From positions 64,001 through 128,000 of IMG/VR virus record IMGVR_UViG_3300044719_000048: a stretch of 64,000 nucleotides of DNA. One strand, written 5' to 3'. Below the pieces are notes generated by a model. The model did no database searches, was not told where the DNA came from, and saw only the letters and a program-made list of their open reading frames with translations. Shown here in pieces: positions 6,886 through 48,192 of this stretch. How positions within the stretch are numbered: position 1 is the first letter of the stretch; each line of letters begins with the position of its first letter. Made by a program: the position numbers and the translations under genes. This stretch comes from a virus (Duplodnaviria; Caudoviricetes).

Positions 6886-6895
6886 GAGTTGCCTT

Positions 6896-7642
6896 TCAAT
6901 AATTGGTGAGCTTGATTTGGAAATCGTTGTTCAGGCCTATCGCCACAATGACGGCTGCATCGCCGTCTATCTCGGAGACTATCTGCATGTCGAAGTTTGC
7001 GTCCACCGACTGAAGCACGAGATTGTAGTTGGCGATCTCGTAGAAGAACTGCTGGAGCGTCAGGATGTCGATGCCCTTCAACCCTCCCTTGGCCTCAATC
7101 AATACGTGCGTTGTCGGATACCACGGTCCGCCCTCCCATATAGGAGTGCCTATGGTTTCATCTCCCTCAGGTACGAAGGTCACGTAGTCAGTGGTCCACA
7201 TATTGAAGACCCTGAAATCTGAGGACAGGCAGTAGTTGATGAACTCGATGAACTGTCCTGTGCCCTTGCCGAACCAGTAGGTGCCGACGAAACGAGCAAT
7301 GGTCTGGTAAGCGTCGTCTGAGACGATGCCTGCGGTCTGGAGCTTCATGCCGAGGGCGTTGACCTGCTTGACTACTAGGTCGCGGTCAGGAGTAGACCAT
7401 GCACTGTCAGGTATCAACGCCTGCTGGTCCACGCTGGCCTCCGTCGTAGGGTTTTGCACCCACATATTGCGGAGATTAGCCAGAGTCCGAAGCTCTGCAT
7501 CCACAGTGGGGCCGAACACAGCATCCATCGCATTGCAGTACTCGACGAAGTAAGGGTTCGATGCGAGATACGGTGGCAGCAGAGTCGAACGAGGGACGAT
7601 GATTCCGTGGCGCTGCCTGTACTTTGCGCTTTCAGTATCCAA
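6896..7642 (-). CDS. Baseplate wedge protein (P2 gpI/T4 gp7-like)
   Basis: LLPPYL...YWFGKGT..FIEFI pattern; lies between the J-like gene and the fibre gene. Confidence 0.6.
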   Translation of the reverse strand: MDTESAKYRQRHGIIVPRSTLLPPYLASNPYFVEYCNAMDAVFGPTVDAELRTLANLRNMWVQNPTTEASVDQQALIPDSAWSTPDRDLVVKQVNALGMKLQTAGIVSDDAYQTIARFVGTYWFGKGTGQFIEFINYCLSSDFRVFNMWTTDYVTFVPEGDETIGTPIWEGGPWYPTTHVLIEAKGGLKGIDILTLQQFFYEIANYNLVLQSVDANFDMQIVSEIDGDAAVIVAIGLNNDFQIKLTNY

Positions 7643-7835
7643 AGAGGACCTCTCTTGATTCTGGAGTGGAGACCAGCATTTCCGGGCACTCCTTTATGGG
7701 CCGCAACCCGTGAGTCATAGCCATCTGCTCTTTCGGGTTGCTGACCATGTTGTTGAATAGCTTTATGGTGGCCTCTTCGTTCGACATGGCTTCCGCCACG
7801 TAGACCACCTTGTCGCACTGGCACAGATAGATCAT
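7632..7835 (-). CDS. Small hypothetical protein (67 aa, MIYLCQCDK...)
   Basis: ATG at 7835 overlaps the TAA of the baseplate J gene and fills the gap to the next gene. Confidence 0.45.
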   Translation of the reverse strand: MIYLCQCDKVVYVAEAMSNEEATIKLFNNMVSNPKEQMAMTHGLRPIKECPEMLVSTPESREVLFGY

Positions 7836-9595
7836 TATGCCAGCCTCGTGGGTGCACCTTGGATGCGCTGTTGCCGCTCGGCGTACACAACATTGACCAC
7901 CAGGCTGTTGATCTTGTTGTAGCGGATTGGAACATTGGCCGTTCCCGGAGGCGCGACACCCGGCGTGATAGAGCCGTTGTCCGTGAACTGCAGCGGATCG
8001 CCTGCGTTGATTGTGGCTAAGAGGCCTACACCCTCGGACGCTTTCCGACCATAGACCTTGTACTGTGCAGCGACTTCCATAGGGAGCCACGTGAGTTTGA
8101 CGGAGTTGTTGTTACCCATCGCATTCGTGATCTGCGGGAAGACCCAGTTCGACGGGGGCCCTTCCTCGCCGTCGCCGTTCACGACCGACACGCCGTAGGA
8201 GTACATCAGAGGCGTCAGCGTACCTGATCCGTGAATGAGCTCGAACTGCAGGCCCGGACTCGGCGGCGCAGTCACGATCATCGGATCGGTCGGCGACTGC
8301 ACGGTGACATAGGACACTAGGCCAGGAGCAGCTATACGGCAAGCGTTCTCCAAGTCATAGCCATAGAAGTTGGTCATCAGCAAGCCGCTGCGTGGCGCGA
8401 ATAGCTGATTGATCTGTGCCTCACACGCCGCTTGCACTTGCGAGAGGATAGCAGTGTTGAAGCAGAAGACAGTGACCTCGATGTCACGTAAGATCGCTAT
8501 AGGATCTTGGAACACGAAACGTGGTGCGTACATCGTGACCGACTGCAGGTATGAACAGTAGTCTTTCTTCTGCTGCGTTGTCCAAGGTGTAGTGGTTAAT
8601 GCCGAGACACGCATCACGTTCATCCACTCCAAGGCCATCGGGTTAATGTCGCGCTGGGCCTGCGTCACCGAATCGATGACGCCTGGATAGTCACCGACTG
8701 TCGCCAGATACTGGGACTTCGTGACCGCCGACGAGTAGGTGCCGAAGGCCCCACTACTCAAGTTCTTGTAAGTCTGGATCGGCTGCTCATCGCCACCCCC
8801 TGTCGGGTTTGCCAAGGCCGTGCCCGTGATTTCCGGATGGCCGTCCACTGAGAGAGGCTTGCCTTGCAGAGTCTGGTTCGACCCGTCTGCGCCATTCGTG
8901 ATGGCGTATTGAATGACGATGACATCGGAGACCTGCGGCGTATAGCCGAACTGCTGCGAACCGAAGACCACGAGTAGGCGTCCATCCGACGTGGTGAGAT
9001 CCGCATACGCCGGAAGGCCCCTGTAGTTCCAGAGCGTGCCAAACGATTTTTCGATCAGCGTATTGTTCACGTAGACCCTTACGTCTTGGTCGGAGACGGT
9101 GAACGAGTCGTCCTCGGAGAGGAAGGTCTGACGAGGCGAACCCAAACCACTCATCGCGAAGGCCGTGATCCGGCCTTGGAACAGCGTCACCGTCTGCGGT
9201 ACGTTAGCGGTGAAGAACAGCTGCTCGCGATTGAAGTAGTATTGCCCAGCGATCAGGAACTGAGTCATCGGATTCAGCGTCTGCGTGGTAGTCGACGTGA
9301 GCGAAACATCTAGCCCGGCCGGGAGCTTACGCGTCATGCGCAGGCCCTGCATCTGGGTGATGGCTCGAATAGCGTCATCGGACTGCGCGGTTTCCGCGAA
9401 TGCGTCCTCCGCCGTTCGGATGTTTCGGCCTTCCATGAAGGTGCCAACAGCGGCGACCAACTCGATTAGCGTCTGAGAGGTCTGCGTGGTCAGATTCCCT
9501 TTCCACGTAGGCGTGTTCGACAAATAGGTCTCGAACGCCGTGACGAAGTCGTTGAAGTCCGCTGCTGTTACTGGGATGCTCAGGTCTTGGCTCAT
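7835..9595 (-). CDS. Baseplate wedge protein (P2 gpJ/T4 gp6-like)
   Basis: DF..F..A...YL, LLVVFG...FG..P, Y.ITNGADG, TGGGDEQ, SAVTKSQY motifs. Confidence 0.85.
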   Translation of the reverse strand: MSQDLSIPVTAADFNDFVTAFETYLSNTPTWKGNLTTQTSQTLIELVAAVGTFMEGRNIRTAEDAFAETAQSDDAIRAITQMQGLRMTRKLPAGLDVSLTSTTTQTLNPMTQFLIAGQYYFNREQLFFTANVPQTVTLFQGRITAFAMSGLGSPRQTFLSEDDSFTVSDQDVRVYVNNTLIEKSFGTLWNYRGLPAYADLTTSDGRLLVVFGSQQFGYTPQVSDVIVIQYAITNGADGSNQTLQGKPLSVDGHPEITGTALANPTGGGDEQPIQTYKNLSSGAFGTYSSAVTKSQYLATVGDYPGVIDSVTQAQRDINPMALEWMNVMRVSALTTTPWTTQQKKDYCSYLQSVTMYAPRFVFQDPIAILRDIEVTVFCFNTAILSQVQAACEAQINQLFAPRSGLLMTNFYGYDLENACRIAAPGLVSYVTVQSPTDPMIVTAPPSPGLQFELIHGSGTLTPLMYSYGVSVVNGDGEEGPPSNWVFPQITNAMGNNNSVKLTWLPMEVAAQYKVYGRKASEGVGLLATINAGDPLQFTDNGSITPGVAPPGTANVPIRYNKINSLVVNVVYAERQQRIQGAPTRLA

Positions 9596-9596
9596 A

Positions 9597-10019
9597 TTAT
9601 GTTCCTGCGGTCTCCTGGAACCGAATGTCCAGTGGGTTTTTGGTTAAGGTATCCGTGCCTACGATCCGAACTTCGTAACCGGGGATCAGGGTATTGGGCG
9701 TGATAGAGCACTTGGCGTAGTCCAGACGAATGCGCGGCTCCCACCTTGAGATAGCCTGAATCATGGCGATCCTCATCTTCGCTGCGGTGACGAGATCGAT
9801 GGGCTCTTGCAGGAACAGTTTCCATTCGGAACCGTACTCAGGCTGAAAGATCTTGCCGCGCTCTCCAATAGAACAGTTGAACAAGTTGAAGAGGCTCGAA
9901 TGAACAATGGACAGTGAGTCAGGCAGTCGGTCAGGCAAAGCGTCCTGGGTGACCCTGCTGTTGACGTCTATCCATGTTGCCCCTGACAGGGACAGTTCAA
10001 AGTTGGTAGGCTGTGGCAT
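9597..10019 (-). CDS. Baseplate wedge protein, gp25/GPW family
   Basis: SLFNLFNCSIGERGKIFQPEYGS...LQEP...AISRWEPRI signature. Confidence 0.9.
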   Translation of the reverse strand: MPQPTNFELSLSGATWIDVNSRVTQDALPDRLPDSLSIVHSSLFNLFNCSIGERGKIFQPEYGSEWKLFLQEPIDLVTAAKMRIAMIQAISRWEPRIRLDYAKCSITPNTLIPGYEVRIVGTDTLTKNPLDIRFQETAGT

Positions 10020-10030
10020 GTTGTCCTCAA

Positions 10031-10038
10031 ATGAAATT
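10031..10038 (-). promoter_or_regulatory. AATTTCAT promoter-like motif (class A)
   Basis: In the 19-nt gap directly before the GAGGA RBS of the gp25-like gene. Confidence 0.5.
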
Positions 10039-10884
10039 CTACACTATGCTGGTGATGATGCCGTCTTGCACGGTTATGGTCTTGTTCTCCTTGGAGTGGA
10101 ACACGCCACTAGCACCGTTGCCCGCCGACAGACTACCCGTTGAAGACGTACTCGGCGCGTTTAGGCTGATCCCACCGCCACTTATCGTGACCAGACCGCT
10201 ACCACTTATAGTAATCGTTGGGGCGTTCAGCGAAATCGAGCTACCAGCAGTTTCTGTGATAGTGTCGGCACTTAAGCTGGCCGCGCTCTGTACGCTTTCA
10301 GTCTGGTTCCCTTGGATGTTCAAGGTGCTGTTCCCTTGAACCGTCGTGTCTTGATTACCACCTATGGTGGAGGTCTGGTTGCCAATCACGTCTTCGCTCA
10401 GGTCCTTCGCAACGTGCAGGTTGACGTCTCCTGCGCCGTCGTACTTCAGGGTCGTACCCGACTGATGCGTGAACTCCCATGCGCCTGTATCCATATTTAC
10501 CCACAGCTCCGAACCTCCTGGGTCCTTGAACCCCCAAGTGTTGGGATTGCTGAACTTGGGATTGGCGTGCGCAGCCAGATACTCGTCGCACTCGTAGACG
10601 GGGTGATGCGGATCGCCTCCTTGGAAGGACACCCGCACTGGCGATCCGACCTTGGGTGCGCCGTACACTCCGTAGTTGGGACCCTGTCCGAACGGAGACT
10701 TCTTGGACGGCAGGCACCACGGTATGGGACCTTGATCGCTGTCCAGAAGCTCTGGTATCCGAACCTTGACACGAGCAATGCCCAGTGGGTCGTTGTTCTC
10801 TACGACGGTACCCACTACAAAGCCGTCGTACTTGTCGTCCTGCTCTGCATCAGAGAGACGATCGTTCACTGAGTTCATTGTCAT
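10039..10884 (-). CDS. Baseplate central spike (gp5/gpV/VgrG OB-fold plus beta-helix)
   Basis: GTVVENNDPLGIARVKVRIP...PKVGSPVRVSFQGGDP.HPVY, followed by GNQT..I/V beta-helix repeats. Confidence 0.9.
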   Translation of the reverse strand: MTMNSVNDRLSDAEQDDKYDGFVVGTVVENNDPLGIARVKVRIPELLDSDQGPIPWCLPSKKSPFGQGPNYGVYGAPKVGSPVRVSFQGGDPHHPVYECDEYLAAHANPKFSNPNTWGFKDPGGSELWVNMDTGAWEFTHQSGTTLKYDGAGDVNLHVAKDLSEDVIGNQTSTIGGNQDTTVQGNSTLNIQGNQTESVQSAASLSADTITETAGSSISLNAPTITISGSGLVTISGGGISLNAPSTSSTGSLSAGNGASGVFHSKENKTITVQDGIITSIV

Positions 10885-13173: not shown

Positions 13174-14603
13174 TGTAGTCCTACCAAAGTTTTGCCCGGA
13201 CCTTTGATCAGATCGGTGGGGCTATTGTTGGACGTTATGACCGGAGTAGTGCTCTGAGCTGCGGTCTTGAGTGTGGTCTTGCGTGGAGGCTCCACATATC
13301 GAGACTCGGCCATACGCGGTTGATCCGTTACTAAGGCCGTAGCAGAATTGGCCTCCCTGTAAGCACGCTCGTAGTTGGCGATCTGGAACTCAAGGAAGTC
13401 TTGAGCACTCATGCTGGCTTTCATGCCGTTTTGCTGCATAGCCAGCAGCGTTGCTGGACTGGCTTCACCACCTTTCATGACATTGATAATGCCGGGACCA
13501 ATGTTGTGCATCATGTATAGGTTAGCTCCCGTCACAGGAAGTCCAGCCTGCCTGAGCAACGTGGCGTTCTGGGAAGCCAACAATGCAGTGGCCAAAGTGT
13601 TGATGCGCTTATCAAAACGGGGGTCCTCCTCTGTTCTGAAGTTGCCGTTTGGATTGGGCTTTACGTGAGGCCGTATCGGCCTCCCCTTCGCATCCTTCTC
13701 CTCTCGGTAGATGCCAGTGATAGGCTGCATGCCAATGGCTGCACCACCTTTCGAGATCAACGCATTCCACGTACTGGCTACAAACTGACCCGTACCGATA
13801 GCACCAGTGGGAGACATCTTGCCTGTCCAGCCAGACTCCATCTTGATGAAGCCCCGCAGCACGTCCAGTGGAAGTGTCGGGAACATCGTTGAGGCTTCTC
13901 GTATGTAACCATCCACGTCGGCGCCGAAGCCCGTGAACTTTTTGCCCTCCTTGGCTTTATAGATTTTCTGCGTCGCGAAGGCGCGCTTTATGGCCTTGAC
14001 CGCTGAGCTTTCAGTGATAGTTTCCAGCGTGGACTTGGGCTGTGCGGCTACCGGATTCGGAAGTTCTTCAACCACTGCTCCGGTAGGTGCAGTGTCTATC
14101 TCTTCCACTTCAGGCTTGGCGAAATACTTCCGATACAAAGCAACGCCACCTGCCACTGCGGCGGCGATGCCTAAGCCTATGAGTACCTCAGGCGTCAGCA
14201 CCGCGGCAACGGCTGTCGCAGCGGCCTCGAAGAGGGGAACGATGACCCAGCGTAGGGCTGCGCGTGCGGCGATTCGTACCAGGTTCATTGCCATGCGTGC
14301 GGCAAAGCGGAGTATGGGGCGCATGATGGCCTTTATCAGCCGTTTGCCCACCATCTCCATGACCTTACCCATAAGGCGGCCCATCACATCACGCTCAGGC
14401 TCACCTTCCTCTAGGCGCGTTGCCATTTCTACCACTGACTGCATGGCCTTCTTAGCCTGTCGGCTGTCATGCGCCTTCTTGCCCAGCTTCGTCAGCAGCC
14501 GCTCTAGCTTGGTAGTAGCGACCGCCAGCCGTTGAAGACCGTCGAAGGCTTCCAAGACTGGACGGTCTTCTCTGGTCGGGAATCGGTCCAGAGTGTAGTT
14601 CAT
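13170..14603 (-). CDS. Tail-associated lytic transglycosylase (SLT domain)
   Basis: IKMESG...TGAIGTGQFVASTW catalytic motif and LYMMHNIGPG; hydrophobic segment upstream. Confidence 0.8.
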   Translation of the reverse strand: MNYTLDRFPTREDRPVLEAFDGLQRLAVATTKLERLLTKLGKKAHDSRQAKKAMQSVVEMATRLEEGEPERDVMGRLMGKVMEMVGKRLIKAIMRPILRFAARMAMNLVRIAARAALRWVIVPLFEAAATAVAAVLTPEVLIGLGIAAAVAGGVALYRKYFAKPEVEEIDTAPTGAVVEELPNPVAAQPKSTLETITESSAVKAIKRAFATQKIYKAKEGKKFTGFGADVDGYIREASTMFPTLPLDVLRGFIKMESGWTGKMSPTGAIGTGQFVASTWNALISKGGAAIGMQPITGIYREEKDAKGRPIRPHVKPNPNGNFRTEEDPRFDKRINTLATALLASQNATLLRQAGLPVTGANLYMMHNIGPGIINVMKGGEASPATLLAMQQNGMKASMSAQDFLEFQIANYERAYREANSATALVTDQPRMAESRYVEPPRKTTLKTAAQSTTPVITSNNSPTDLIKGPGKTLVGLQ

Positions 14604-16249
14604 GAGATCATACCTAGGTTGAGGATATTCAGTGCAGAGTCGCCACTGTCGAAGCCAAACGAACCCATGCCGATCTGCGCTATAGCGGCCTTAGACTTCT
14701 CCTCTGCCGTCTTCTCCTCAGCCTGCTTTTCGGGACTGTCGTACGAACGACCGGGTAAGAACCTAGGCATGTCGCCAATCACTTGAGTGGATACCGGCGT
14801 TGCAGCGCTCGACTTGTTCAGCATTTCCTGCGGATTTGCCACCGTAGTAGGGGCAGGGACGGTAGATACCTCCGTTGCCTGCTGAACGGCCGTTGCTGCC
14901 TGACTTGAAGAGATCTCACCTACCGCAGTAGAGGCCGAGGCCTGCGGGGCTTGAGCAGGAGTCACCAACGTCTTTGCCTGCTCGATGTCAGAGCCTGCGG
15001 TCTTCACTTGCTGCGCACGTGAGCCATACATGGTGACGCGGCTCTGCCAGTAATTGACGCTCAGCTGCGCTTCGTCAACGGCCTTCTTATTGGCAGCAGT
15101 TGGGTTAGCAGTGTAACGCGCTGTTGCTTCGGACAGACGCTGTTGCGCTTGCGCCAGACCAGACTGCTGAGTGGGCAGCGCCTTCTTAGCCTCTTCCGCA
15201 CTGATCTCTTTCGGCAGCTCCGTCGTTTTGGCGACAGGTTTGACCTCAGCCCTCGTCTCCGACTTCTTTTTCTCCTTGGTGCCGAACCCAAGCAACGACT
15301 TGACCTTATCGATGATCCAGTCAAGGGAATCGGTGCCTAGCTTCTTCGTTTCCTCCCAAGTAGAGTCCACAAACTTGGAGATGTTGTCGAAGTTGAGGAG
15401 CCTCGATACCTCGTCGGTTATGGACTGAATGAGCTGAGGATTCATGACAGCCATCAACAAGGGCCTGCTAATCATGTCGAAGAGGTCGGACGCCTTAGAT
15501 GCTCCCGACTTCGCTTTGGACCATGCTCTGCCGAAAGGCGAGAACACGGCTTTGAGCTTGCGTAGCCAAATGTTGGCTCTACGTTCCTCGTCGTTCTCTT
15601 CGTTTGACCGTGAGAACCTCTCGTACAGAGAGGACACGCGATCACGAATAGCACCTGCCGTGTCGCGTATCATCTGCATCACTTCGGTACGCTGCTGATC
15701 AGCGCGCTCCTGTCGATCGAGTACGCGATCCATGAGCGCTCGATTCTGCGGAGTCTCCGGCGCACCCTGCTCAGGCTCAGAGCGGTCGAGAAGACGGTCC
15801 AGAGGATTGCGCTCGCCGGCAGGGACCTGCTGCGGTACTGGCATCGCGCGTATGCGTTCGAGTGCAGACTCCACTCTGGTTCGTATCGTCTGCTCCTGCT
15901 GCTCGAATTCGTCGTGCACCTGCCCGAGTATGTCCTCGATGGCCTGACTCATCACGTCTTGGAACGCACGGTTGAACAAGCGTTCTTGCGCGCGGTCTGT
16001 CAGGGCTTTCTTGCCAGATTCGATGCGCTTGCGCTCAAGGCTGTCTACTACTTGATTGGCGGTCTTCACCGCGTCTTCAACACCTTGATCGAAAATCTGC
16101 CCCGCTAGTTCGTGTTGCTCAGCCAGCAGTTTGGATATGGCGTCCAAGTCTTCTTTTGAGCCCTTGCCTGCCAGTATCCTATCGATGTGGGCATGCCCTG
16201 CGTCTTGCAGGGAGTCCCACTTCGATTGATTTCGTGCATTGAGTGTCAT
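14600..16249 (-). CDS. Putative tape measure protein
   Basis: 549-aa helical, A/Q/E-rich protein between the chaperone pair and the SLT gene. Confidence 0.55.
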   Translation of the reverse strand: MTLNARNQSKWDSLQDAGHAHIDRILAGKGSKEDLDAISKLLAEQHELAGQIFDQGVEDAVKTANQVVDSLERKRIESGKKALTDRAQERLFNRAFQDVMSQAIEDILGQVHDEFEQQEQTIRTRVESALERIRAMPVPQQVPAGERNPLDRLLDRSEPEQGAPETPQNRALMDRVLDRQERADQQRTEVMQMIRDTAGAIRDRVSSLYERFSRSNEENDEERRANIWLRKLKAVFSPFGRAWSKAKSGASKASDLFDMISRPLLMAVMNPQLIQSITDEVSRLLNFDNISKFVDSTWEETKKLGTDSLDWIIDKVKSLLGFGTKEKKKSETRAEVKPVAKTTELPKEISAEEAKKALPTQQSGLAQAQQRLSEATARYTANPTAANKKAVDEAQLSVNYWQSRVTMYGSRAQQVKTAGSDIEQAKTLVTPAQAPQASASTAVGEISSSQAATAVQQATEVSTVPAPTTVANPQEMLNKSSAATPVSTQVIGDMPRFLPGRSYDSPEKQAEEKTAEEKSKAAIAQIGMGSFGFDSGDSALNILNLGMIS

Positions 16250-40963: not shown

Positions 40964-40971
40964 TATTTACT
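40964..40971 (-). promoter_or_regulatory. AGTAAATA promoter-like motif (class B)
   Basis: Intergenic, 35 nt before the ATG at 40929. Confidence 0.6.
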
Positions 40972-40988: not shown

Positions 40989-41477
40989 CTAGAAAGGACC
41001 CGGCTGCGTCTGCCAGCAGGTGATACCACGTTCACGCCACATCGCAACGGTCGAATCGCGGTCTTCGATGACCAGCAGGATGCGGTCGAGCGAGTAGCCA
41101 GCCTCTTCGATCAGGCGGGGCTTGAGCACAGTGTCGTGCTCCTTCTCACTGTCGAGTGGACGCATCAGCAACTTGGACTGATCGATCTGAAAGCCGAACA
41201 GCTCTTGCAGCTGCAGGGTCGTGTACTCGCGGCAAAGCTCAGAACGGCCGGTGACGAACAAGTATTCCAGAGACTGGGTGTCTCGTACCATGTCGAGGAA
41301 CATCCCATACACGACATGCCCTGCCGGAATCGTCTTGTCCGTGTGGTACAGATTGTCGTATGTCTCGCGGTCGCCATTCAGGAAATGTGGGAGACGCTCC
41401 TCCGAATCTACGAGACACCCATCGATGTCCAAGATGATCAGGTTCTTTTGGGTTTGGGTGATCTGTACGTGGTTCAT
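40989..41477 (-). CDS. HAD-family phosphatase (polynucleotide 3'-phosphatase-like)
   Basis: [16 protein letters not shown]...D..LK, IEDRD...MWRERG resemble the T4 PNKP phosphatase domain. Confidence 0.85.
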
Positions 41478-42157
41478 TTATGGCTCAGGGTAACGAACTC
41501 GGAACGAGTTTCGGGATTGCGGAAAGCGCCGCCGACCTTGGACGTCACCGTATCGGAACAGGCGTCTTCCACGCCGCGCGTTTTCACGCACATATGTTCG
41601 GCTTCGATGATGACGGCAACGTCTTCGGTTTCCAGAATGAAGCACAGGGCGGCGTGAATCTGTGCGGTCAAGCGCTCCTGCACTTGCGGGCGGGCAGCAA
41701 AGAACTGCACGATGCGATTCATCTTCGACAAGCCCAAGACCTTGGCGCCCGGAATGTACGCCACGTGAGCCTTGCCGATGATGGGCAACAAGTGGTGCTC
41801 ACACGTCGAATTCAGCGTGATGTTGCGCTCGAGCACCATCTCGTCCACGTGCATCTTGTTCTCGATGACCGTGCACTTAGGGAACTCATCGTAGTTGAGC
41901 CCCTTGAAGACCTCGTTCATGAACATTTTCGCCACGCGCGTCGGCGTCTCGCTCAGGCTGTCGTCGAGCAAGTCGAGATGCAGTTCCTCCATTATGGCGT
42001 GCACATGGCGTTCGATACGACTCAGTCGGCCAGCATCGTACTGAGCGTCCTTTACGGAAAGAGCGAGAGACTGCGGCACCTGCAACATCGGCGTTTCGAT
42101 GCCGAGCTGCTTCAGATGCTCGTTGACCAGCTTGCCCAGTTGAGGGTCGTTCTTCAT
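41474..42157 (-). CDS. folE: GTP cyclohydrolase I
   Basis: [49 protein letters not shown]. Confidence 0.98.
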
Positions 42158-42167
42158 GTTGTTCCTT

Positions 42168-42965
42168 TCAGGCTAATGCACAGATGGTGTGCATCTGAAT
42201 AGACAGACGCAGATTGTTTTTCAGCGCGTACGCGGCTGCGTAGCGGTAGTTGGCGGCCGTCTGCTCCTGATCGACGAGCTCAGCGTCCCATATGCTGGAG
42301 ACTTCGCCTTCATAGGGCTTCCGGTAGACGGTCATTGGCGAAACCATCACGATCTTGTGACTGCGCAGCGCCCACTCAGGAATCGTGTGATGCGCCGACT
42401 CCGGATCGGCAGAGATCACGAACTTGTATGCGTGCGCCCACCACTGGACCTTCTCAGGCACTTGCGGGTACTTCTTGAGTCGCTCGTTCGCCTTTGGGCT
42501 GACGATGAACTCCAGTCGGTCGTCGCCAATCAAGCCCATGTGCTCGGCCTGCTCGAAGAACTTCGGCTGCGTGCCGTTCGTTTCCACTTGGATAGCAGAG
42601 AAATGGCACAGGGCTTTGGTGATCAGCGCCAGTACATTGGCTTGCAGCGTGGGCTCTCCGCCAGTGATGACCAAGATGTCTGAGGGGGAGTAGCCCTTGA
42701 CCCGCAGCAGGACCTCGAGCACGGTGTCGATGTTCAGAATCGAGGCCTTATCGAATTGGAACGACGTGTCGCAAAACAAGCAGTGGTCGGTCTTCGATCC
42801 GTAGTTGCATCCCGCGAGACGAAGGAAGACCGCGGGCTGTCCGGCCCGTGTTCCTTCTCCTTGCAGCGTACGGAACCAAGATGTCACGCGTAATCGATTG
42901 TCCATGAAGCGGTAGTCACGGGCACTGATATTGCGGTCTTGGTTTTGAACTTGGATGGGTATCAT
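42168..42965 (-). CDS. queE: 7-carboxy-7-deazaguanine synthase (radical SAM)
   Basis: [22 protein letters not shown]...[30 protein letters not shown]; start at MIPIQ (ATGA coupling). Confidence 0.95.
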
Positions 42966-43393
42966 GGCGCTTTCACCTTCGAGTTGAAGACCCGGTCGTT
43001 GTAGCACAACCGGGATTGCATACGAATGAAGGACTTGGGGAGCCCTTCCTCTACGTTATTTACGTAGTAGTCGTACAGCTGCTTCGTCGTCGGAATGTTG
43101 TTGTACTTGGGGATCTCTACTGAGACCTCGTTCGGCATCAGCGACTTCGGATCCGGCATACTAGTGCGCGTCCAGATGCCGGAGCCTTTTGTGTAATGCC
43201 ATCCGAGGATAGGCACACCTGCCGCGTGCAGATATGCCAGTCCGGAGACCACAACGAGAAATTTGTGCTTGCGCTTTGCTTTCTCGATGTTGTGGACTCC
43301 GATTGCGAGGTCGACGTTGCCCGAAGCCCATTTGCGGAACTCCGGTGACAGCGATGGATACCCGTAGACGTTCTTTGCTTTGAGTACCCTCAT
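42962..43393 (-). CDS. Orphan protein inside the deazaguanine operon
   Basis: 143 aa, ATGA-coupled on both sides. Confidence 0.7.
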   Translation of the reverse strand: MRVLKAKNVYGYPSLSPEFRKWASGNVDLAIGVHNIEKAKRKHKFLVVVSGLAYLHAAGVPILGWHYTKGSGIWTRTSMPDPKSLMPNEVSVEIPKYNNIPTTKQLYDYYVNNVEEGLPKSFIRMQSRLCYNDRVFNSKVKAP

Positions 43394-44832
43394 TTCTTCC
43401 CTTTCTTGGTTGACATGCCGTGGAATTCCTCATAGCGCATGATGGCCTTCGTCACGTTGGCCTCGGCCTTCTTGTGCTGCTCGTTGACCTTCTGCGCCGC
43501 AGTGAATAAGCCCTTGTCCTCCTTGTTCTTCCGCATGAACTCTTTCAAGGCTGGGCCGTGCTTGGTCCACGCCCTGTCGAAGCCCTTGTCCATGTCGCAA
43601 ACGAAAGCAAAAAGCATGCGGTAGAGAGGCCACAGGGCCTTGCGCGGCTGAATGGTCAGCAGCAACTCGTCCAGAGGCAGCTTGCCATTCAAATACATCT
43701 TGGTCATAGACGCAATGATCTCGGCCAATCGACGTTGCACGAACAGCGTATGGATTGCGTTGGCGTCCTGCGACATACGATAGACTTGTGCATCGCCAGC
43801 CAGATTGCAGACCGGGCAGTTGCACGCCAGCCCGAACGGAGCGGCGAGGGTCTCCAACGGACCTGCCGATACTTGGTCCTTGCGGCTGATGATCGTGCCC
43901 CTTGTCCAGAACGACAGGCTTGCCTGACTGTACGTCGAGGAGTCCGCAGTGATGAACGGCGCCGTCTCGTTCAAGGTCAGAATGTTGTAGAGCGCGATGT
44001 GCAGCGGGCTCATCGTCCCCAGAATGTGGAACCGATCATATACACCCTTGGAGCGGCACAACACATAGCACATGTTGATGACCGAGGCCGTTACCGAAGT
44101 CAACTGGTTGTCGTAGTTTGCTTGACCGATACCGCCCATAGACAGGCCGGAGCCCACCTTGTGCTTCAGCACGTAGTCGAGGAACTTGGCGCGATTCTCC
44201 AGTGTCAACCCGTGCGACACATCGTAGAGCTCGCAACCACTTCCCTTGATCTTCTTCGAGATGTACTCGTTGTTCTTCAGCATGACCTTGCACATGCGGA
44301 GGAACCAGTCGGTGCCCTGAAGGTGGCGAGGAACCGGAATGTCCATGCCGATGCCTATGTTTATCTTCTTCGCGTAGAAGTGCGAGACCTCATCGAGGTC
44401 CATGAACTCGGTCACGCCCTTCGACAGCTGGAAGCCACCTGAGTCAGACACCACATGGACCTTACCGTTGCGCCGCACGTAATCCGAAGTGGCCAGACGT
44501 TCCGGCGTGACCATCATCATGTTGTACCCGGCTTCGAGCATGAACTCAGGGGCTGTAAGCGGCGACAGATGCGTGGCCCGGTCGAACTCGAAGTCAGGAA
44601 TACCGAAGGTAGCACCGTTGCCGCGACCCACGAACACTGTCTTATCCTTGAGGTAGATCGTGTGCAGACCCTTCACTCTCTCGGACGTGTAAGGCTTCTT
44701 GGGTGTGCCGTAACGTACTCCGAGGAAGCTGTTCAGCGCCATCGAGTTGACGGCGGCCGGCATCAGAGATACGCGAGGGTTGACCGACTCTTTGTTCAGC
44801 AGCTTGTCGAGTGGAAGGCAGTCAGGTTTCAA
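43390..44832 (-). CDS. dpdA: TGT-family transglycosylase, probably DNA 7-deazaguanine insertase
   Basis: VVSDSGGFQ, GMDIP, HG, MGG, FHILG, TADSSTY, CNCPVC...H zinc site; preQ0 genes on both sides. Confidence 0.85.
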   Translation of the reverse strand: MKPDCLPLDKLLNKESVNPRVSLMPAAVNSMALNSFLGVRYGTPKKPYTSERVKGLHTIYLKDKTVFVGRGNGATFGIPDFEFDRATHLSPLTAPEFMLEAGYNMMMVTPERLATSDYVRRNGKVHVVSDSGGFQLSKGVTEFMDLDEVSHFYAKKINIGIGMDIPVPRHLQGTDWFLRMCKVMLKNNEYISKKIKGSGCELYDVSHGLTLENRAKFLDYVLKHKVGSGLSMGGIGQANYDNQLTSVTASVINMCYVLCRSKGVYDRFHILGTMSPLHIALYNILTLNETAPFITADSSTYSQASLSFWTRGTIISRKDQVSAGPLETLAAPFGLACNCPVCNLAGDAQVYRMSQDANAIHTLFVQRRLAEIIASMTKMYLNGKLPLDELLLTIQPRKALWPLYRMLFAFVCDMDKGFDRAWTKHGPALKEFMRKNKEDKGLFTAAQKVNEQHKKAEANVTKAIMRYEEFHGMSTKKGKK

Positions 44833-45592
44833 AGTCAGCCTCGTTCGATGTGATGTAGTCGGGAGGCAAGGCCGGAAGGATCTCGCTCTTGCGATCTTCG
44901 TCGTAGTGGTCGCCGGACTTCATGGCGTTCACCAGCTCGCGTAGCTCTCTGGTCTGGAGTGGATCAACGTTGTATTGCTCTTGGGCGATGCCGAGCTGGC
45001 GGAAGATACCCCACCGGCGCAGGCAGACAACGCAGCGACCGCAGTTACCGGCCTCACCGGACAGGCAACTGCTGCTGTGCTTGATCTGCTGTTCCGTGAT
45101 GCCGTTCTTCAACGCCCACTCGACAGCGCGCAGCTTGTTCATTTTGGCTTCCGCCAGAGGAAAGCGAACCTGGACGTTCGACTTGAACGGAGCCAACACG
45201 TAACCGAGCGTCTCGTTCATGAGCTCTACGAACGCCCAGTTCTTGTCGGTGGCACTGTCGTGGGTTTCGCCTTGGAGTGCACCCATCCAGATTTGATCGG
45301 GCAGATACATGCAGGCAGCCGCAGTGGCCAACAGCATGTTGCGCCCCGGGATGTAGATGTTGCCGGAGGCCGACCCTTCTTTGGACTTCAGTTGGCCGTC
45401 GATGTCCACGTTCAGCCACGGCAGATCGCGCTGAATCACGTAATCAGGGAGAGCCGCGATCTCCTTGGCGGCATACTCCTGGCCGATGTTGTAGAACACG
45501 CAGGTAACGGTTGCGTCCGGGTAGTTGACCTCGGCGTAACGCTTCATGATGAGCGAGTCGAGGCCTCCGCTGTATAAGATGAGGATATTCAT
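44822..45592 (-). CDS. queC: 7-cyano-7-deazaguanine synthase-like ATP pyrophosphatase
   Basis: LYSGGLDS PP-loop, GQ...KE, YIPGRN, PL...K, SC...CGRCVVCLRR. Confidence 0.9.
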   Translation of the reverse strand: MNILILYSGGLDSLIMKRYAEVNYPDATVTCVFYNIGQEYAAKEIAALPDYVIQRDLPWLNVDIDGQLKSKEGSASGNIYIPGRNMLLATAAACMYLPDQIWMGALQGETHDSATDKNWAFVELMNETLGYVLAPFKSNVQVRFPLAEAKMNKLRAVEWALKNGITEQQIKHSSSCLSGEAGNCGRCVVCLRRWGIFRQLGIAQEQYNVDPLQTRELRELVNAMKSGDHYDEDRKSEILPALPPDYITSNEADFET

Positions 45593-46126
45593 TTAGATTG
45601 GCTTGCTATTGTTAGAGGTTTGGTTCCTGAAAAGGCCGCGATCGCCTTCGACCACGTGATCGATTTCCTCGTGAGGGAAGACGATCCAGTCAGAAGTGGT
45701 CATACCTGCAATATTTACTCGACTGCGGATGGACTCATCCACGTTGTTATCGAGCACCGCAGGCACGAACTCGGCGCTTACGTGGCTCCCATAGTAGGCT
45801 GCGTGTGCCGTCAGAACCTTGGTCAGCGTGCGTCCCTGCGCCACCACGTCTTCCAGATAGACGAACACCGCTCGGTCATCGTTCGTCAGGTCATCCCACG
45901 TTGGGTGCTGCACTCGCATCGGGTGCGGCGAAGCCATAGGGAAGACCACTCCGAGAGGCAGTGCCATCTTGTAGGCTACGAGCTGGCCGAACGTCAGGCC
46001 GCCCCGGGCGATAGCGAACAGGAACAGCCTGTCGGCCTTGATCTGCTCGGCGTATTTCACTCGGAGTTGTTCAACCACGTGGTTGGCAACGTCCTTCAGT
46101 TGTTCGTAGGTGAGGTAGACTTTCAT
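45593..46126 (-). CDS. Type I purine phosphoribosyltransferase (Gpt-like)
   Basis: AIARGGL, VYLEDVVAQGRTL PRPP-binding loop, WIVFPHE. Confidence 0.85.
   Translation of the reverse strand: MKVYLTYEQLKDVANHVVEQLRVKYAEQIKADRLFLFAIARGGLTFGQLVAYKMALPLGVVFPMASPHPMRVQHPTWDDLTNDDRAVFVYLEDVVAQGRTLTKVLTAHAAYYGSHVSAEFVPAVLDNNVDESIRSRVNIAGMTTSDWIVFPHEEIDHVVEGDRGLFRNQTSNNSKPI
45712..45719 (-). promoter_or_regulatory. AGTAAATA motif inside the PRT gene (possible internal promoter for queC-dpdA)
   Basis: Exact match, 120 nt upstream of the queC start. Confidence 0.3.
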
Positions 46127-46989
46127 AGTGGGTACGTGACATTCAATCCGAAGTTGGCGGCCGGCGTGTTGTAGCTTTCCACCCAGCGCACGATCTCGTT
46201 GTAGTTCGCGAACATTGTCTCATAACCGGCCGCACTGAATTCCTTGGGGTGCTTAATCGCGAGCTCCTGCACCTTCAAGGCCTTGCACAGCGCATTCAGA
46301 GTAGCCGAATCGGACAGCTTGTCGGTCTCGACGTGAATGACGTTCGGCAAGGCGTGCACCAATCGTTTGTGAACATCGAGACGACGAAGCATACGGCGTG
46401 CGTAGTCTTCTGGCATCGCCAGCTTAGTGGTCTTGCGTGCTTCCTCCTGTTCCGGGCATGGAGCGAAGATGCCAGTGTAGTCGCAGGCAAAGTTGCTGCA
46501 CAGCCACTTGACCAGGTCCGAAGGCATGAGGTTGATGGTCACGTCGAAGCCTTTCAGCACGGCATCCATCCACAGGTCGTTGGGAGCTTCCACGTCGCCC
46601 ATGAGCGTGACGATTTGGGTCTTCACCACATAGCTGAACTCGCGGTATCGGTTCAGCAGCGTCCTCAGGTAGTAGATGTGCTGATCAGTCAACACTTCCT
46701 CGTAGTGGCATTCCACGTAGCACATGGAGTGGTGCCGCGCCACGGGCAGGAAGGAAGAACCGCTGAAGTCCTTGAAGTGCGGATGCGTGCGGAACAGGAT
46801 GGCGTGCTCTGGATCGAACGGCTTCACAGCTTCGTACCCGAACTTGTATCCGTGGAACGACCATCCGTGGAAGTACTCACCCAAGTGCTTCTCGCTGCCA
46901 ATGGTCAGCGTGCGGCCCAAGGCCGTGTTTATCGCGTCTTGCAGGGACTTGCTTCCCGTACGCTGCATGCTCAGGATATGGACCTTCAT
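46123..46989 (-). CDS. Sulfotransferase-fold protein (Stf0-like)
   Basis: ILSMQRTGSKSL (5'-PSB loop), LGEYF, VVK, INL...DLV..LCS (degenerate 3'-PB), IHVETDKL, FANYNEI; start at MKVHIL. Confidence 0.65.
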   Translation of the reverse strand: MKVHILSMQRTGSKSLQDAINTALGRTLTIGSEKHLGEYFHGWSFHGYKFGYEAVKPFDPEHAILFRTHPHFKDFSGSSFLPVARHHSMCYVECHYEEVLTDQHIYYLRTLLNRYREFSYVVKTQIVTLMGDVEAPNDLWMDAVLKGFDVTINLMPSDLVKWLCSNFACDYTGIFAPCPEQEEARKTTKLAMPEDYARRMLRRLDVHKRLVHALPNVIHVETDKLSDSATLNALCKALKVQELAIKHPKEFSAAGYETMFANYNEIVRWVESYNTPAANFGLNVTYPL

Positions 46990-46990
46990 G

Positions 46991-47668
46991 TCAGAACTCC
47001 AGAATGAATTTGTTTCCGTCCCACGACGGGAAGCCTTTGGCACAGACGTTGTACTTCTCGACGCAGTACTCTACCGTCATCGAAGGCGTCATGTGGCCTC
47101 GGATGTCGAACGAAGAGGCCAGCCGTTCTTCTCTAGTAGCGGCGTCGATGATGCGCCACTTGAGGTCCGAACCATTGTGCAGAGTGTTGAACCGAATGTG
47201 GTAGGTCCTCATCTGATCGGTGACGGCCTGGACAACGATTTTGGCGGCTTCCTCAAAACGCGGTTCGTCCAGATACTTGTTGAACTGCAGATCGGGAGTA
47301 CCGACGTACGGCTGGAACAGCTTGTTGGTGTCCTCGAAACGGCCTTCCTGAATGGTATTCATGAACACCGTGAAGACCTTGTTCTCTCCGTCGGCCTCTG
47401 CCGCACTGAAGTAGGCAACGCGAGTGTCGTTCGTCGGATTCACGAAGTCCACGACTGTCCACTGATTCTTGACAGTCAGCGCTGCGATATGTCCCAGTGC
47501 GTAAGCCTGCTTGATGCGGTCCACTTCCGTGAAGCCCAGATGGGAAGTCACCGTGGACCGCGCCCAGTCGGCGTTGATGTGTACAGCGTTCAGAAGTGCG
47601 GCCACCTTGCGAGCCAGCGTGGTCTTGCCCGAACCCGGAAGGCCGATGATAGTGATGATCTTACGCAT
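46991..47668 (-). CDS. Adenylylsulfate (APS) kinase-like protein with an extra C-terminal domain
   Basis: GLPGSGKTTLA, NADWAR, HLGFTEVDR (cf. CysC DLGFS..DR), VVDFVNP. Confidence 0.75.
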   Translation of the reverse strand: MRKIITIIGLPGSGKTTLARKVAALLNAVHINADWARSTVTSHLGFTEVDRIKQAYALGHIAALTVKNQWTVVDFVNPTNDTRVAYFSAAEADGENKVFTVFMNTIQEGRFEDTNKLFQPYVGTPDLQFNKYLDEPRFEEAAKIVVQAVTDQMRTYHIRFNTLHNGSDLKWRIIDAATREERLASSFDIRGHMTPSMTVEYCVEKYNVCAKGFPSWDGNKFILEF

Positions 47669-48118
47669 TTATGCTCCCATGTAGATTGCGCTGTTAGATT
47701 CGTGCTCGGAGACTTCAACCGACACGAGCGTGACGCGGTCTCCGTAACCGGCGTCCTTCAACCACTGCTCAGCCACCTGGTAGGTGTACTCGGCGAATTT
47801 CTCGCACCCGCCTGCAGGAAGTTCTACCAACCGCAGGACGCCTAGGCGATGACCTTCACGGAACCACTCGATCTGCGGGTCGTCGGAAGCCACGATGGTA
47901 GTGTGATCGAACGTATCGGCCAGAATCTGCTTGAGGGACTTGACGCCGCCGAAGTCGACCACCCAGTTGCGCGCGTCCAAATCCTCTGCCGAAAACACGA
48001 ACCTGAAAGCCAACGCGTATCCGTGCAGAAGACGGCAGTGCGAGTCAGCCCGCCACTGGCGGAAGGCGCAACTGAAACCAGTGGAATGCGGGTAGTGTTT
48101 TGTGCTCTGATAGGACAT
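47669..48118 (-). CDS. queD: 6-carboxy-5,6,7,8-tetrahydropterin synthase
   Basis: FRQWRADSHCRLLHGY, WVVDFGG.K, FDH, GCEKFAE, VEVSEH..NSAIY; start at MSYQS (GGAG RBS). Confidence 0.93.
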   Translation of the reverse strand: MSYQSTKHYPHSTGFSCAFRQWRADSHCRLLHGYALAFRFVFSAEDLDARNWVVDFGGVKSLKQILADTFDHTTIVASDDPQIEWFREGHRLGVLRLVELPAGGCEKFAEYTYQVAEQWLKDAGYGDRVTLVSVEVSEHESNSAIYMGA

Positions 48119-48137
48119 GTCGATCTCCGGTGTAGAC

Positions 48138-48173
48138 AAAAAAGTGCCCGGCAGATCGATTCAATCTACCGGG
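48138..48173 (-). terminator. Terminator/attenuator hairpin in the queD leader
   Basis: CCCGGTAGAT-TGAATCG-ATCTGCCGGG-CAC-TTTTTT on the - strand. Confidence 0.65.
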
Positions 48174-48184
48174 TAATCACGTCT

Positions 48185-48192
48185 TATTTACT
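48185..48192 (-). promoter_or_regulatory. AGTAAATA promoter-like motif (class B)
   Basis: Overlaps the o-spanin stop; heads the deazaguanine operon. Confidence 0.55.

Follow-up and report, generated by a model that had tools for sequence, protein, structure and literature searches.

A phage 7-deazaguanine operon with embedded APS-kinase-like and sulfotransferase-like genes: a candidate route to sulfated deazapurines

Introduction

Could a phage attach sulfate to a base of its own DNA? The question is raised by a stretch of 64,000 nucleotides from a virus (Duplodnaviria; Caudoviricetes), referred to here as the window, which spans bases 64001-128000 of the 189.5-kb IMG/VR virus record IMGVR_UViG_3300044719_000048, a record estimated to be about 80% complete. 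Ten open reading frames (ORFs), all on the minus strand, pack positions 40989-48139 of the window as one tightly coupled unit, as read from the ORF list and the sequence. Their order is QueD, a kinase of the adenosine 5'-phosphosulfate (APS) kinase family, a protein with a Stf0-like sulfotransferase fold (the ST-like protein), a phosphoribosyltransferase (PRT), QueC, a DpdA-like transglycosylase, an orphan, QueE, FolE, and an HAD phosphatase. An initial annotation, made from the sequence alone, had described these ten genes as one unit and proposed that the phage might make a sulfated or sulfamated deazaguanine in its DNA; all ten ORFs were recovered at the positions given there.

The answer reached here is graded. 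The unit is very probably a 7-deazaguanine DNA-modification operon that specifies both the synthesis and the insertion of the base. That sulfation dependent on 3'-phosphoadenosine 5'-phosphosulfate (PAPS) is linked to this deazaguanine pathway is a proposal that we find evenly balanced. The explanation that best accommodates the locus as a whole is a conserved operon for a hypermodified 7-deazaguanine, located in the variable DNA-modification island of a phage from the phiRSL1/BCSR5/Motura clade, and we give that explanation about an equal chance of being right or wrong.

Genes for 7-deazaguanine synthesis and a transglycosylase

Recognition of FolE, QueD, QueE, and QueC, together with the tRNA-guanine transglycosylase (TGT) fold and motifs of the 480-residue protein encoded beside them, is the reason for reading the unit as a 7-deazaguanine synthesis and insertion system. 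The GTP cyclohydrolase I, FolE (41474..42157; every feature of the unit lies on the minus strand), scored 210 bits with Pfam and 291 bits, above the cut-off, with NF006824. The QueD-like 6-carboxytetrahydropterin synthase (47669..48139) matched Pfam PTPS at 64 bits and phrog_2389 at an E value of 3.6e-43; judged from the sequence, its true start is most likely the ATG at 48118, which lies behind a GGAG, and not the TTG at 48139. The QueE-like radical-SAM 7-carboxy-7-deazaguanine synthase (42168..42965) matched Pfam Radical_SAM, phrog_2076 (E 9e-36), and TIGR03963 (E 3e-20). QueC (44822..45592) is a divergent member of the QueC family of PP-loop ATPases that passed the Pfam QueC cut-off (51.2 versus 22 bits) and matched phrog_1550 (E 1e-29) but fell below the equivalog cut-off of TIGR00364 (53.3 versus 150.3 bits). 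A phmmer search with this protein against solved structures returned nothing significant and no solved QueC. Pfam, PHROG, or NCBIfam models thus bore out the identities first assigned to QueD, QueC, QueE, and FolE, as well as those of the PRT, the HAD phosphatase, and the APS-kinase-like protein discussed below.

The 480-residue protein (43390..44832) had no match to Pfam (including the TGT model PF01702 at its gathering score), PHROG, or NCBIfam, and phmmer against solved structures returned nothing significant. Its placement in the TGT/DpdA superfamily comes from its motifs and predicted fold. An AlphaFold2 model with a predicted local distance difference test score (pLDDT) of 67.5 and a predicted template modeling score (pTM) of 0.74 gave 157 fold matches at E<=1e-3, and all 47 of the matches listed were TGT or DpdA chains, with 6h62 (3e-8) and the DNA preQ0 insertase DpdA 7ui4 (3.5e-8) at the top. 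The motifs DSGGFQ, GG, DSxT, and CxCxxC...H are invariant among jumbo-phage homologues and align with those of ArcTGT 1iq8; invariant residues of the group are D130 to Q135, D297, C337, C339, C342, and H361, corresponding to the catalytic Asp and the zinc site. The protein is 30% identical to the 'tRNA guanine transglycosylase' of Achromobacter phage Motura, which is encoded in a cluster of the form queC-(Asn-synthase-like)-tgt-x-queE-x-folE. We regard it as a TGT/DpdA transglycosylase, and the island context and an isoelectric point (pI) of 9.3 suggest that its substrate is DNA rather than tRNA. Like this Pfam-negative protein, DpdA3 and DpdA4 were found only by sensitive methods (HHpred; PMC10516641). 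For both labels that lacked a Pfam match, 'dpdA' and 'sulfotransferase-like', structure prediction and fold search agreed with the initial annotation.

Downstream of the transglycosylase gene there is always a gene for a basic orphan protein of 143 residues (42962..43393; pI 9.8), which has no family match in Pfam, PHROG, or NCBIfam. The position is kept in L002, L004, L005, and L008 (L numbers label the related phage and bacterial loci that were compared with the window). In phages Motura and BCSR5 as well, an unannotated gene occupies the place 3' of the transglycosylase gene. The orphan may bind DNA as a partner of the DpdA-like enzyme.

Described phage deazaguanine systems (FolE/QueD/QueE/QueC with DpdA1-4; PMC6884629, PMC10516641) have the same precursor genes and a TGT-superfamily transglycosylase in one cluster. 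Eight deazaguanine derivatives have been described so far, with QueF, Gat-QueC, ArcS, DpdL, DpdM, and DpdN as the enzymes (PMC6884629, PMC10516641). In contrast, the known tailoring enzymes (QueF, ArcS, Gat-QueC, and DpdL/M/N-type domains) were not detected among the operon proteins by Pfam, PHROG, or NCBIfam, in agreement with the initial annotation, and the window instead has the APS-kinase-like protein, the sulfotransferase fold, the PRT, and the HAD phosphatase.

The APS-kinase-like enzyme and its pairing with sulfotransferases

The kinase and ST-like genes are embedded between queD and queC, as first annotated, and the two are adjacent in every related locus found. The kinase gene lies directly upstream of the ST-like gene in 11 of the 11 loci that show both. 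The ten-gene cassette recurs in metagenomic phage contigs, where the ST-like protein is 37-50% identical to that of the window and one version is rearranged (L006, in which the adjacency is also kept), so that the company of dpdA with a kinase/sulfotransferase pair, to which the initial annotation had pointed, is a recurrent one. The ST-like family was found only inside such deazaguanine cassettes.

The kinase gene (46991..47668) encodes a P-loop kinase of the APS-kinase family in residues 1-120, followed at about residues 130-225 by a new, conserved C-terminal domain. This domain of about 95 residues, which CysC lacks, gave only sub-threshold matches in an Atlas search and has no recognisable relative. 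The kinase portion scored 39.3 bits with Pfam APS_kinase (cut-off 21.1), and the first 19 solved-structure matches of a profile built from seven orthologues were all APS kinases (E 2e-15 to 2e-8). In addition to the P-loop, the protein shares several acceptor-site residues with CysC and the kinase domain of PAPS synthase (2yvu, 2gks, and 2ofx): D34, the second Asp of the DGD motif, R37, F46, and R51 are invariant and align with 2yvu and 2gks. We take this Asp/Arg/Phe/Arg set to be APS-binding residues, as in the Penicillium chrysogenum (fungal) and human structures. On the basis of these sequence features we propose PAPS as the product that the kinase forms from APS. The record, which is only about 80% complete, yielded no gene for ATP sulfurylase, CysD, or PAPS reductase. 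With neither ATP sulfurylase nor CysD in the record, the kinase would draw on APS of the host. Burkholderiales assimilate sulfate via APS reductase, which reduces APS directly without PAPS, and hosts with no need of PAPS would explain why a phage carries its own kinase.

The strongest case for the kinase as the source of PAPS comes from its orthologues. The DNA polymerase PolA of the phage is about 50% identical to those of a clade of jumbo phages comprising phiRSL1, BCSR5, BcepSauron, and Motura, and wherever a locus extends far enough, the cassette follows polymerase and primase genes. At the same position after the polymerase and primase genes, cultured Ralstonia phage phiRSL1 (L009; AB366653.2, 161848-180498) has an island, ORF228-238, that is headed by a full-length kinase orthologue (ORF238; 48% identical) with the same C-terminal domain. 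The island also encodes three TAGT glycosyltransferases, sugar-activating (nucleoside-diphosphate-sugar) enzymes, an APH-like kinase and a nucleotidyltransferase, a Pfam Sulfotransfer_2 protein (E 4e-21), a 5-hydroxymethyldeoxyuridine (5-hmdU) DNA kinase (HMUDK), a dUMP hydroxymethylase, and an HAD_PNKP homologue. We consider it a putative 5-hmdU hypermodification island, whose gene content suggests a sulfated glycosyl-5hmdU in phiRSL1; literature searches found nothing on the DNA chemistry of this island. Full-length kinase orthologues that are 45-49% identical head the 5-hmdU islands of phiRSL1, L010, L012, and the P0034 contig, and each of the latter three combines the kinase with Sulfotransfer_2, HMUDK, and a thymidylate-synthase homologue. 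Glf is also encoded in two of these three islands; PfkB, a cytidylyltransferase-like domain, and SIS sugar enzymes occur in one. The kinase is thus partnered by two distinct sulfotransferase families, each in its own base-modification system.

The phiRSL1 island thus shares with the window its clade, its position, an orthologous kinase, a sulfotransferase, and an HAD_PNKP homologue, but it differs in the thymidine-derived base, in the three TAGT glycosyltransferases, and in having Sulfotransfer_2 rather than a Stf0-like protein. Distinctive of the window cassette, compared with phiRSL1-type islands, are the lack of a glycosyltransferase, the Stf0-like protein in place of Sulfotransfer_2, and the PRT and HAD sub-module. 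A role for the window kinase as a 5-hmdU-type DNA kinase was considered and rejected: the sister islands already carry HMUDK. HMUDK was not found in the window record, which is weak evidence because control searches for that family were also blank.

Several observations weigh against the proposal that this kinase makes PAPS. The DGD motif reads N32-A33-D34, all invariant, so that the first Asp is replaced by Asn. The lid of APS kinases is unmatched (the Pfam alignment ends at position 112 of 152), and the protein scores far below the NCBIfam CysC cut-off (TIGR00455; 31.8 versus 138.7 bits). More than 400 IMG/VR phage loci (L015-L094 among them) encode kinases of about 250 residues that are about 50% identical to the N-terminal 120 residues and have other C-terminal halves. 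A sample of the commonest neighbors of these kinases contained an SNase nuclease, a 2-oxoglutarate-Fe(II) oxygenase, a CHAP peptidase, and a Trp-halogenase but no sulfotransferase. A bacterial homologue of the whole kinase (L011, 9001-9768; 39% identical over 97% coverage) stands alone beside lipopolysaccharide-core glycosyltransferase genes and a UDP-glucose dehydrogenase gene. The missing APS-synthesis genes count on the same side, subject to the incompleteness of the record.

The wide distribution of the N-terminal kinase relatives among phages, with no sulfotransferase neighbors in the sample scanned, would also fit a sulfation pair that is merely co-located with the operon and decorates an unrelated target such as a glycan, a protein, or a host molecule. 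A related possibility is that the transglycosylase acts on tRNA, and the fold search cannot separate tRNA TGTs from DpdA. We nevertheless judge both to be highly improbable. Between queD and queC, the genes of the pair are separated by no more than 0-1 nt or overlap in their codons: the queD/kinase junction is 0 nt, the kinase/ST-like junction is 1 nt (the ST-like start being the ATG at 46989, not the GTG at 47043), and the ST-like and PRT genes share an ATGA overlap. The pair also stays in the shuffled cassette L006, and the confinement of the ST-like family to such cassettes argues in the same direction.

The Stf0-like sulfotransferase-fold protein

The predicted fold and a loop motif indicate that the ST-like protein, of 288 residues (46123..46989), is sulfotransferase-like. 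An AlphaFold2 model based on a 17-sequence alignment reached a pLDDT of 86 and a pTM of 0.85. Both Foldseek (E 1e-4) and VIA-align (Z 10.4, root mean square deviation 4.2 over 197 residues) placed the mycobacterial trehalose 2-sulfotransferase Stf0 (1tex) first for this model. Of the nine best VIA-align matches, seven were sulfotransferases spanning the whole chain, one of them a sulfotransferase-fused MBP chain. The N-terminal strand-loop-helix carries an invariant QR(T/S)GSKSL, in which R10, G12, S13, and K14 are invariant and which is not a Walker A motif; it aligns, at a sub-significant E of 0.65-0.7, with the PAPS loop PRTGTKSL of the schistosome sulfotransferase 4mua and with NodH. Also invariant are K123, T124, Q125, E38, and H41, which are candidate 3'-phosphate-binding or catalytic-base residues. 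Sulfotransferase families 1, 3, and 4 were the sole recurrent Pfam matches among 29 distant members of the ST-like family, with weak matches in 4 of the 29: Sulfotransfer_3 (5e-4), Sulfotransfer_4 (0.012, two members), and Sulfotransfer_1 (0.013). The ST-like protein shares with Stf0 and other PAPS-dependent sulfotransferases a fold over nearly the whole chain, and its R-x-G-S-K motif resembles their 5'-phosphosulfate-binding loop, but identity is just 12-14%.

Two results temper this assignment. Nucleotide kinases follow at Z 8-9, covering residues 1-240 only, so that the fold margin is modest, and the window protein matches no Pfam sulfotransferase model at its gathering score. Phmmer against solved structures returned nothing significant, so that profiles were needed, and hhalign found no relation between the ST-like family and phiRSL1 ORF237 or ORF232, so that by this comparison no homology of the two sulfotransferase families was detected. 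The models support the protein as sulfotransferase-like at the level of fold and motif, not at that of a curated family, and we propose that it is a PAPS-dependent sulfotransferase. The family is rare: at 90% identity it forms 16 clusters in a set of 5.8 billion proteins, and it has 38 representatives in one of 1.84 billion; scans of IMG/VR and metagenomes gave 2 and 5 more loci, mostly duplicates or short fragments.

The departures of the kinase DGD motif and lid from canonical APS kinases, and an ST-like protein that lies under every sulfotransferase model threshold, also bear on an explanation with no sulfur chemistry at all. APS kinases phosphorylate 5'-substituted nucleotides at the 3'-OH. 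The kinase could phosphorylate the 3'-OH of a deazapurine ribonucleotide made by the PRT, the ST-like protein could bind the resulting 3'-phosphonucleotide, and the PNKP-type HAD phosphatase could take the phosphate off afterwards; each of the four accessory proteins comes from a family dealing with 3'- or 5'-phosphorylated nucleotides. This scheme appears quite unlikely, as kinase orthologues adjoin ordinary carbohydrate-type Sulfotransfer_2 genes without any PRT, and the PRT, HAD, and QueC genes co-occur without the kinase or ST-like gene.

A purine-type phosphoribosyltransferase and an HAD phosphatase

The PRT (45593..46126) passed the Pfam Pribosyltran cut-off narrowly (28.3 versus 26.3 bits). 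Phmmer against solved structures gave nothing significant, whereas the family profile matched the structures of the purine PRT 1vdm, of HPRTs, and of Gpt, which makes this a purine-type enzyme. In its phosphoribosyl pyrophosphate (PRPP) loop, E92, D93, G98, R99, and T100 are invariant. Residue 96 is Ala in 7 of the 7 aligned homologues and in the copy from T4-like phages, and it aligns with an Asp of 1vdm and 6igs, presumably the Asp that contacts N7 in HGPRT (Asp137 of the human enzyme). Ala in place of an N7-contacting Asp fits a substrate without N7, i.e., a 7-substituted 7-deazapurine, and we propose from this residue pattern that the enzyme is a 7-deazaguanine PRT.

The HAD phosphatase (40989..41477) is of the PNKP 3'-phosphatase type, with 61.9 bits against a cut-off of 27.6 for Pfam HAD_PNKP and a DIDG motif. 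Homologues are present in the phiRSL1, L012, and BCSR5 islands. Judged by its family, the enzyme could trim the PRT product, remove 3'-phosphoadenosine 5'-phosphate (PAP), or repair 3'-phosphate DNA ends. The idea of a dedicated PAP phosphatase of a sulfation cycle was considered and seems neither likely nor unlikely; the BCSR5 deazaguanine island has the HAD homologue but no homologue of the kinase or ST-like protein.

Contigs of T4-like phages encode a PRT that is 29-32% identical and has the same C-terminal signature and the same Ala. In these contigs a small HAD-like gene lies upstream of the PRT gene and overlaps it, the gene for a QueC variant, 47-49% identical to the QueC of the window, follows, and a 441-residue protein with the motif HSDSGGLQ is encoded just upstream. 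No homologue of the kinase or the ST-like protein was found near the PRT module in the T4-like contigs. The occurrence of the PRT, HAD, QueC variant, and TGT-like genes without the kinase and ST-like genes indicates that they form a sub-module of their own and that the sulfation pair is an add-on. The initial annotation had assigned no function to the PRT and HAD phosphatase. In full, the T4-like module (L095 and L098-L100, about 6297-10246; L101) comprises the 441-residue TGT-like protein, a 134-residue HAD-like protein, the PRT, the QueC variant, and a 286-residue protein with a DND motif.

In the L005 cassette a PF04447 dATP/dGTP pyrophosphohydrolase gene (14466-14786) lies between the HAD gene and queE. 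The family of this enzyme hints at manipulation of the dGTP pool, and its presence keeps a nucleotide-pool route conceivable. In such a pre-replicative route, the PRT would make a deazaguanine nucleoside monophosphate, the kinase and host enzymes would convert it to the deoxynucleoside triphosphate (dNTP), and the phage polymerase would incorporate it, while phosphatases and pyrophosphohydrolases drained dGTP and the TGT-like enzyme mopped up residual G. The PRT active-site change fits deazapurines, as this route would require, and the L005 enzyme next to the HAD gene is also consistent with it. Phages with the distant DpdA3 subfamily replace 100% of G, and the phiST cluster includes a dNTP hydrolase (PMC10516641). 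Nonetheless, we regard the route as very unlikely: the kinase is nearest to APS kinases rather than nucleoside monophosphate kinases and pairs with sulfotransferases elsewhere, the ST-like protein would be left without a role, and in the published view every known case is post-replicative (PMC10516641). The PRT does reopen the question of whether all deazaguanine modification is post-replicative.

Where the sulfate might go

The observed gene identities, folds, conserved residues, and co-occurrence patterns suggest the following pathway, in which we infer PAPS as the kinase product, the sulfotransfer chemistry, its acceptor, and the entry of a sulfated product into DNA. FolE, QueD, and QueE would convert GTP to 7-carboxy-7-deazaguanine, and the divergent QueC would convert that compound to an amide or nitrile derivative. 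The TGT/DpdA-like enzyme, perhaps with the basic orphan, would exchange guanine in phage DNA for the modified base. The APS-kinase-family enzyme would make PAPS from host APS, and the Stf0-like enzyme would transfer sulfate from PAPS to a small-molecule intermediate of the pathway. The acceptor could be the free base, or a ribonucleotide or nucleoside made from the base and PRPP by the Gpt-like PRT, and the HAD phosphatase may afterwards trim phosphate.

Not all of the evidence favors sulfate in the DNA. Across their families the kinase, ST-like protein, PRT, HAD phosphatase, and QueC are acidic or neutral, a weak hint from their sequences that these enzymes may act on small molecules and that DNA itself may not be sulfated. 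The DpdA-like protein and the orphan are basic, as are the DNA kinase and TAGT of phiRSL1 (pI 9.7). The base preQ0 (7-cyano-7-deazaguanine) offers no obvious sulfate acceptor, and a PRT product that is ribosylated at N9 is not insertable by a transglycosylase. With N9 blocked by the PRT, either the free base would be sulfated before insertion, or the ribosyl group would be attached elsewhere, or the product would be a soluble sulfated nucleoside or nucleotide.

The last of these outcomes deserves consideration on its own. The sulfation pair would be real, but its product would be a soluble sulfated 7-deazapurine nucleoside or nucleotide, with DpdA separately inserting the plain base, so that the explanation differs from the preferred one only in the end point of the sulfate. 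In toyocamycin biosynthesis, the PRT ToyH and the HAD phosphatase ToyI make the riboside, and the pathway also includes homologues of GTP cyclohydrolase I, QueD, QueE, and QueC. By description the window has the same gene set but lacks enzymes of the ToyE/F/G type and has in addition a transglycosylase and a phage DNA-modification island. In 5'-O-sulfonyl nucleoside antibiotics such as ascamycin, a ribose hydroxyl is sulfated. By analogy, the PRT and HAD phosphatase would make a riboside and the ST-like protein would sulfate a ribose hydroxyl. Several observations are consistent with such a product. For a purine-type PRT with the N7-contacting Asp replaced, the most natural reaction is ribosylation at N9, after which a TGT could no longer insert the base; the top-ranked structural match, Stf0, is an enzyme that sulfates the hydroxyl of a sugar; and the accessory enzymes are acidic or neutral while the known DNA-acting enzymes of these islands are basic. 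A 7-amido-7-deazaguanine (ADG) nucleoside was reported in cells infected by a DpdA3 phage (PMC10516641), which indicates that deazapurine nucleosides do occur in such infections. Even so, a soluble product seems unlikely to us, because the same island in sister phages is devoted to DNA base hypermodification and no export or target function is evident.

For a sulfated base within the DNA, the grading is lower than for sulfation itself. Virion DNA may contain a sulfated 7-deazaguanine derivative, possibly with the sulfate on a ribosyl group donated by PRPP, but we hold this to be doubtful. It is a similarly tentative suggestion that the sulfated 7-deazaguanine would correspond, on the purine side, to a sulfated sugar on 5-hmdU in relatives of the phiRSL1 type. 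The initial proposal of a sulfated deazaguanine in phage DNA has therefore fared unevenly: its PAPS component gained support from the pairing of kinase orthologues with Sulfotransfer_2 in 5-hmdU islands, but sulfate on a DNA base is its less likely part.

Operon layout and related islands

The junctions of the operon, as read from the sequence, consist of gaps of 0-10 nt, ATGA overlaps, and one 11-nt overlap. The initial description, ATGA overlaps or gaps of 0-10 nt, holds for most of them but not for queC/dpdA, where the overlap is 11 nt; dpdA has a TTG start and an N-terminus that is kept in homologues. Beyond the junctions of the kinase and ST-like genes given above, PRT/queC is 0 nt, dpdA/orphan and orphan/queE are ATGA overlaps (with the ATG at 42965 as the queE start), queE/folE is 10 nt, and folE/HAD is again an ATGA overlap.

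As first annotated, an octamer, AGTAAATA, heads the unit (48185..48192, minus strand, overlapping the stop codon of the upstream gene), and the next copy ends it (40964..40971, minus strand, just downstream of the HAD gene). The window has 8 copies, all on the minus strand, compared with 0.38 expected by chance, and 0 of 100 shuffles reached 8. On this evidence the octamer is a candidate phage promoter element. An extra copy, not mentioned in the initial annotation, falls within the PRT coding sequence (45712-45719, minus strand); it may act as an internal promoter for queC-dpdA-orphan-queE-folE-HAD or have arisen in the gene by chance. Between the heading copy and the queD ribosome-binding site lies a 12-bp GC-rich hairpin with a T-run (48147..48173, minus strand), which may either terminate the upstream gene or form a regulatory leader structure.

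A thymidylate-synthase gene of the ThyA or ThyX type lies no more than 4 kb after the cassette in four loci (L002, L004, L005, and L008). Searches against 50,697 phage records, among which the record itself and its near relatives may be masked, gave no match for the operon by megablast or for the ST-like protein and PRT by tblastn.

Burkholderia phage BCSR5 (L102; MW460245.1, 3308-20594) has a deazaguanine island with QueD, a DpdA-like protein, QueE, FolE, and the HAD homologue. Upstream in that island lie four genes with hypothetical-protein annotations, which encode a GT1 glycosyltransferase, a PIG-L-type deacetylase, an AAA_28 kinase-like protein, and a PP-loop protein; by its gene content the island may encode a glycosylated deazaguanine.

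Implications

The initial annotation knew of no described example of such a system, and our literature searches found nothing relevant on a sulfotransferase or PAPS, the kinase, or a PRT in phage deazaguanine or DNA-hypermodification contexts. To our knowledge, none of the eight 7-deazaguanine derivatives from phage DNA contains sulfur or a sugar. A 2023 survey of such systems mentions no kinase, phosphoribosyltransferase, sulfotransferase, or HAD phosphatase, and every 'sulfo' in it is Sulfolobus (PMC10516641).

If the proposal of a sulfated base is correct, it would mark the first case of a natural DNA base bearing a sulfate ester or sulfamate, with a phage-encoded supply of PAPS and a new Stf0-like sulfotransferase family. 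Either a sulfated DNA base or a sulfated, phage-made deazapurine nucleotide would be new nucleic acid chemistry. Three enzymes of the operon lend themselves to testing: an APS kinase without a lid and with a new domain, a sulfotransferase of a new family, and a PRT apparently adapted to 7-deazapurines. Because cultured phage phiRSL1 encodes the orthologous kinase alongside a classical sulfotransferase, bench experiments on the kinase part of the hypothesis are already possible. A sulfated DNA base would place a strong negative charge in the major groove and would be expected to influence restriction enzymes, CRISPR nucleases, glycosylase-type defences, and sequencing signals.

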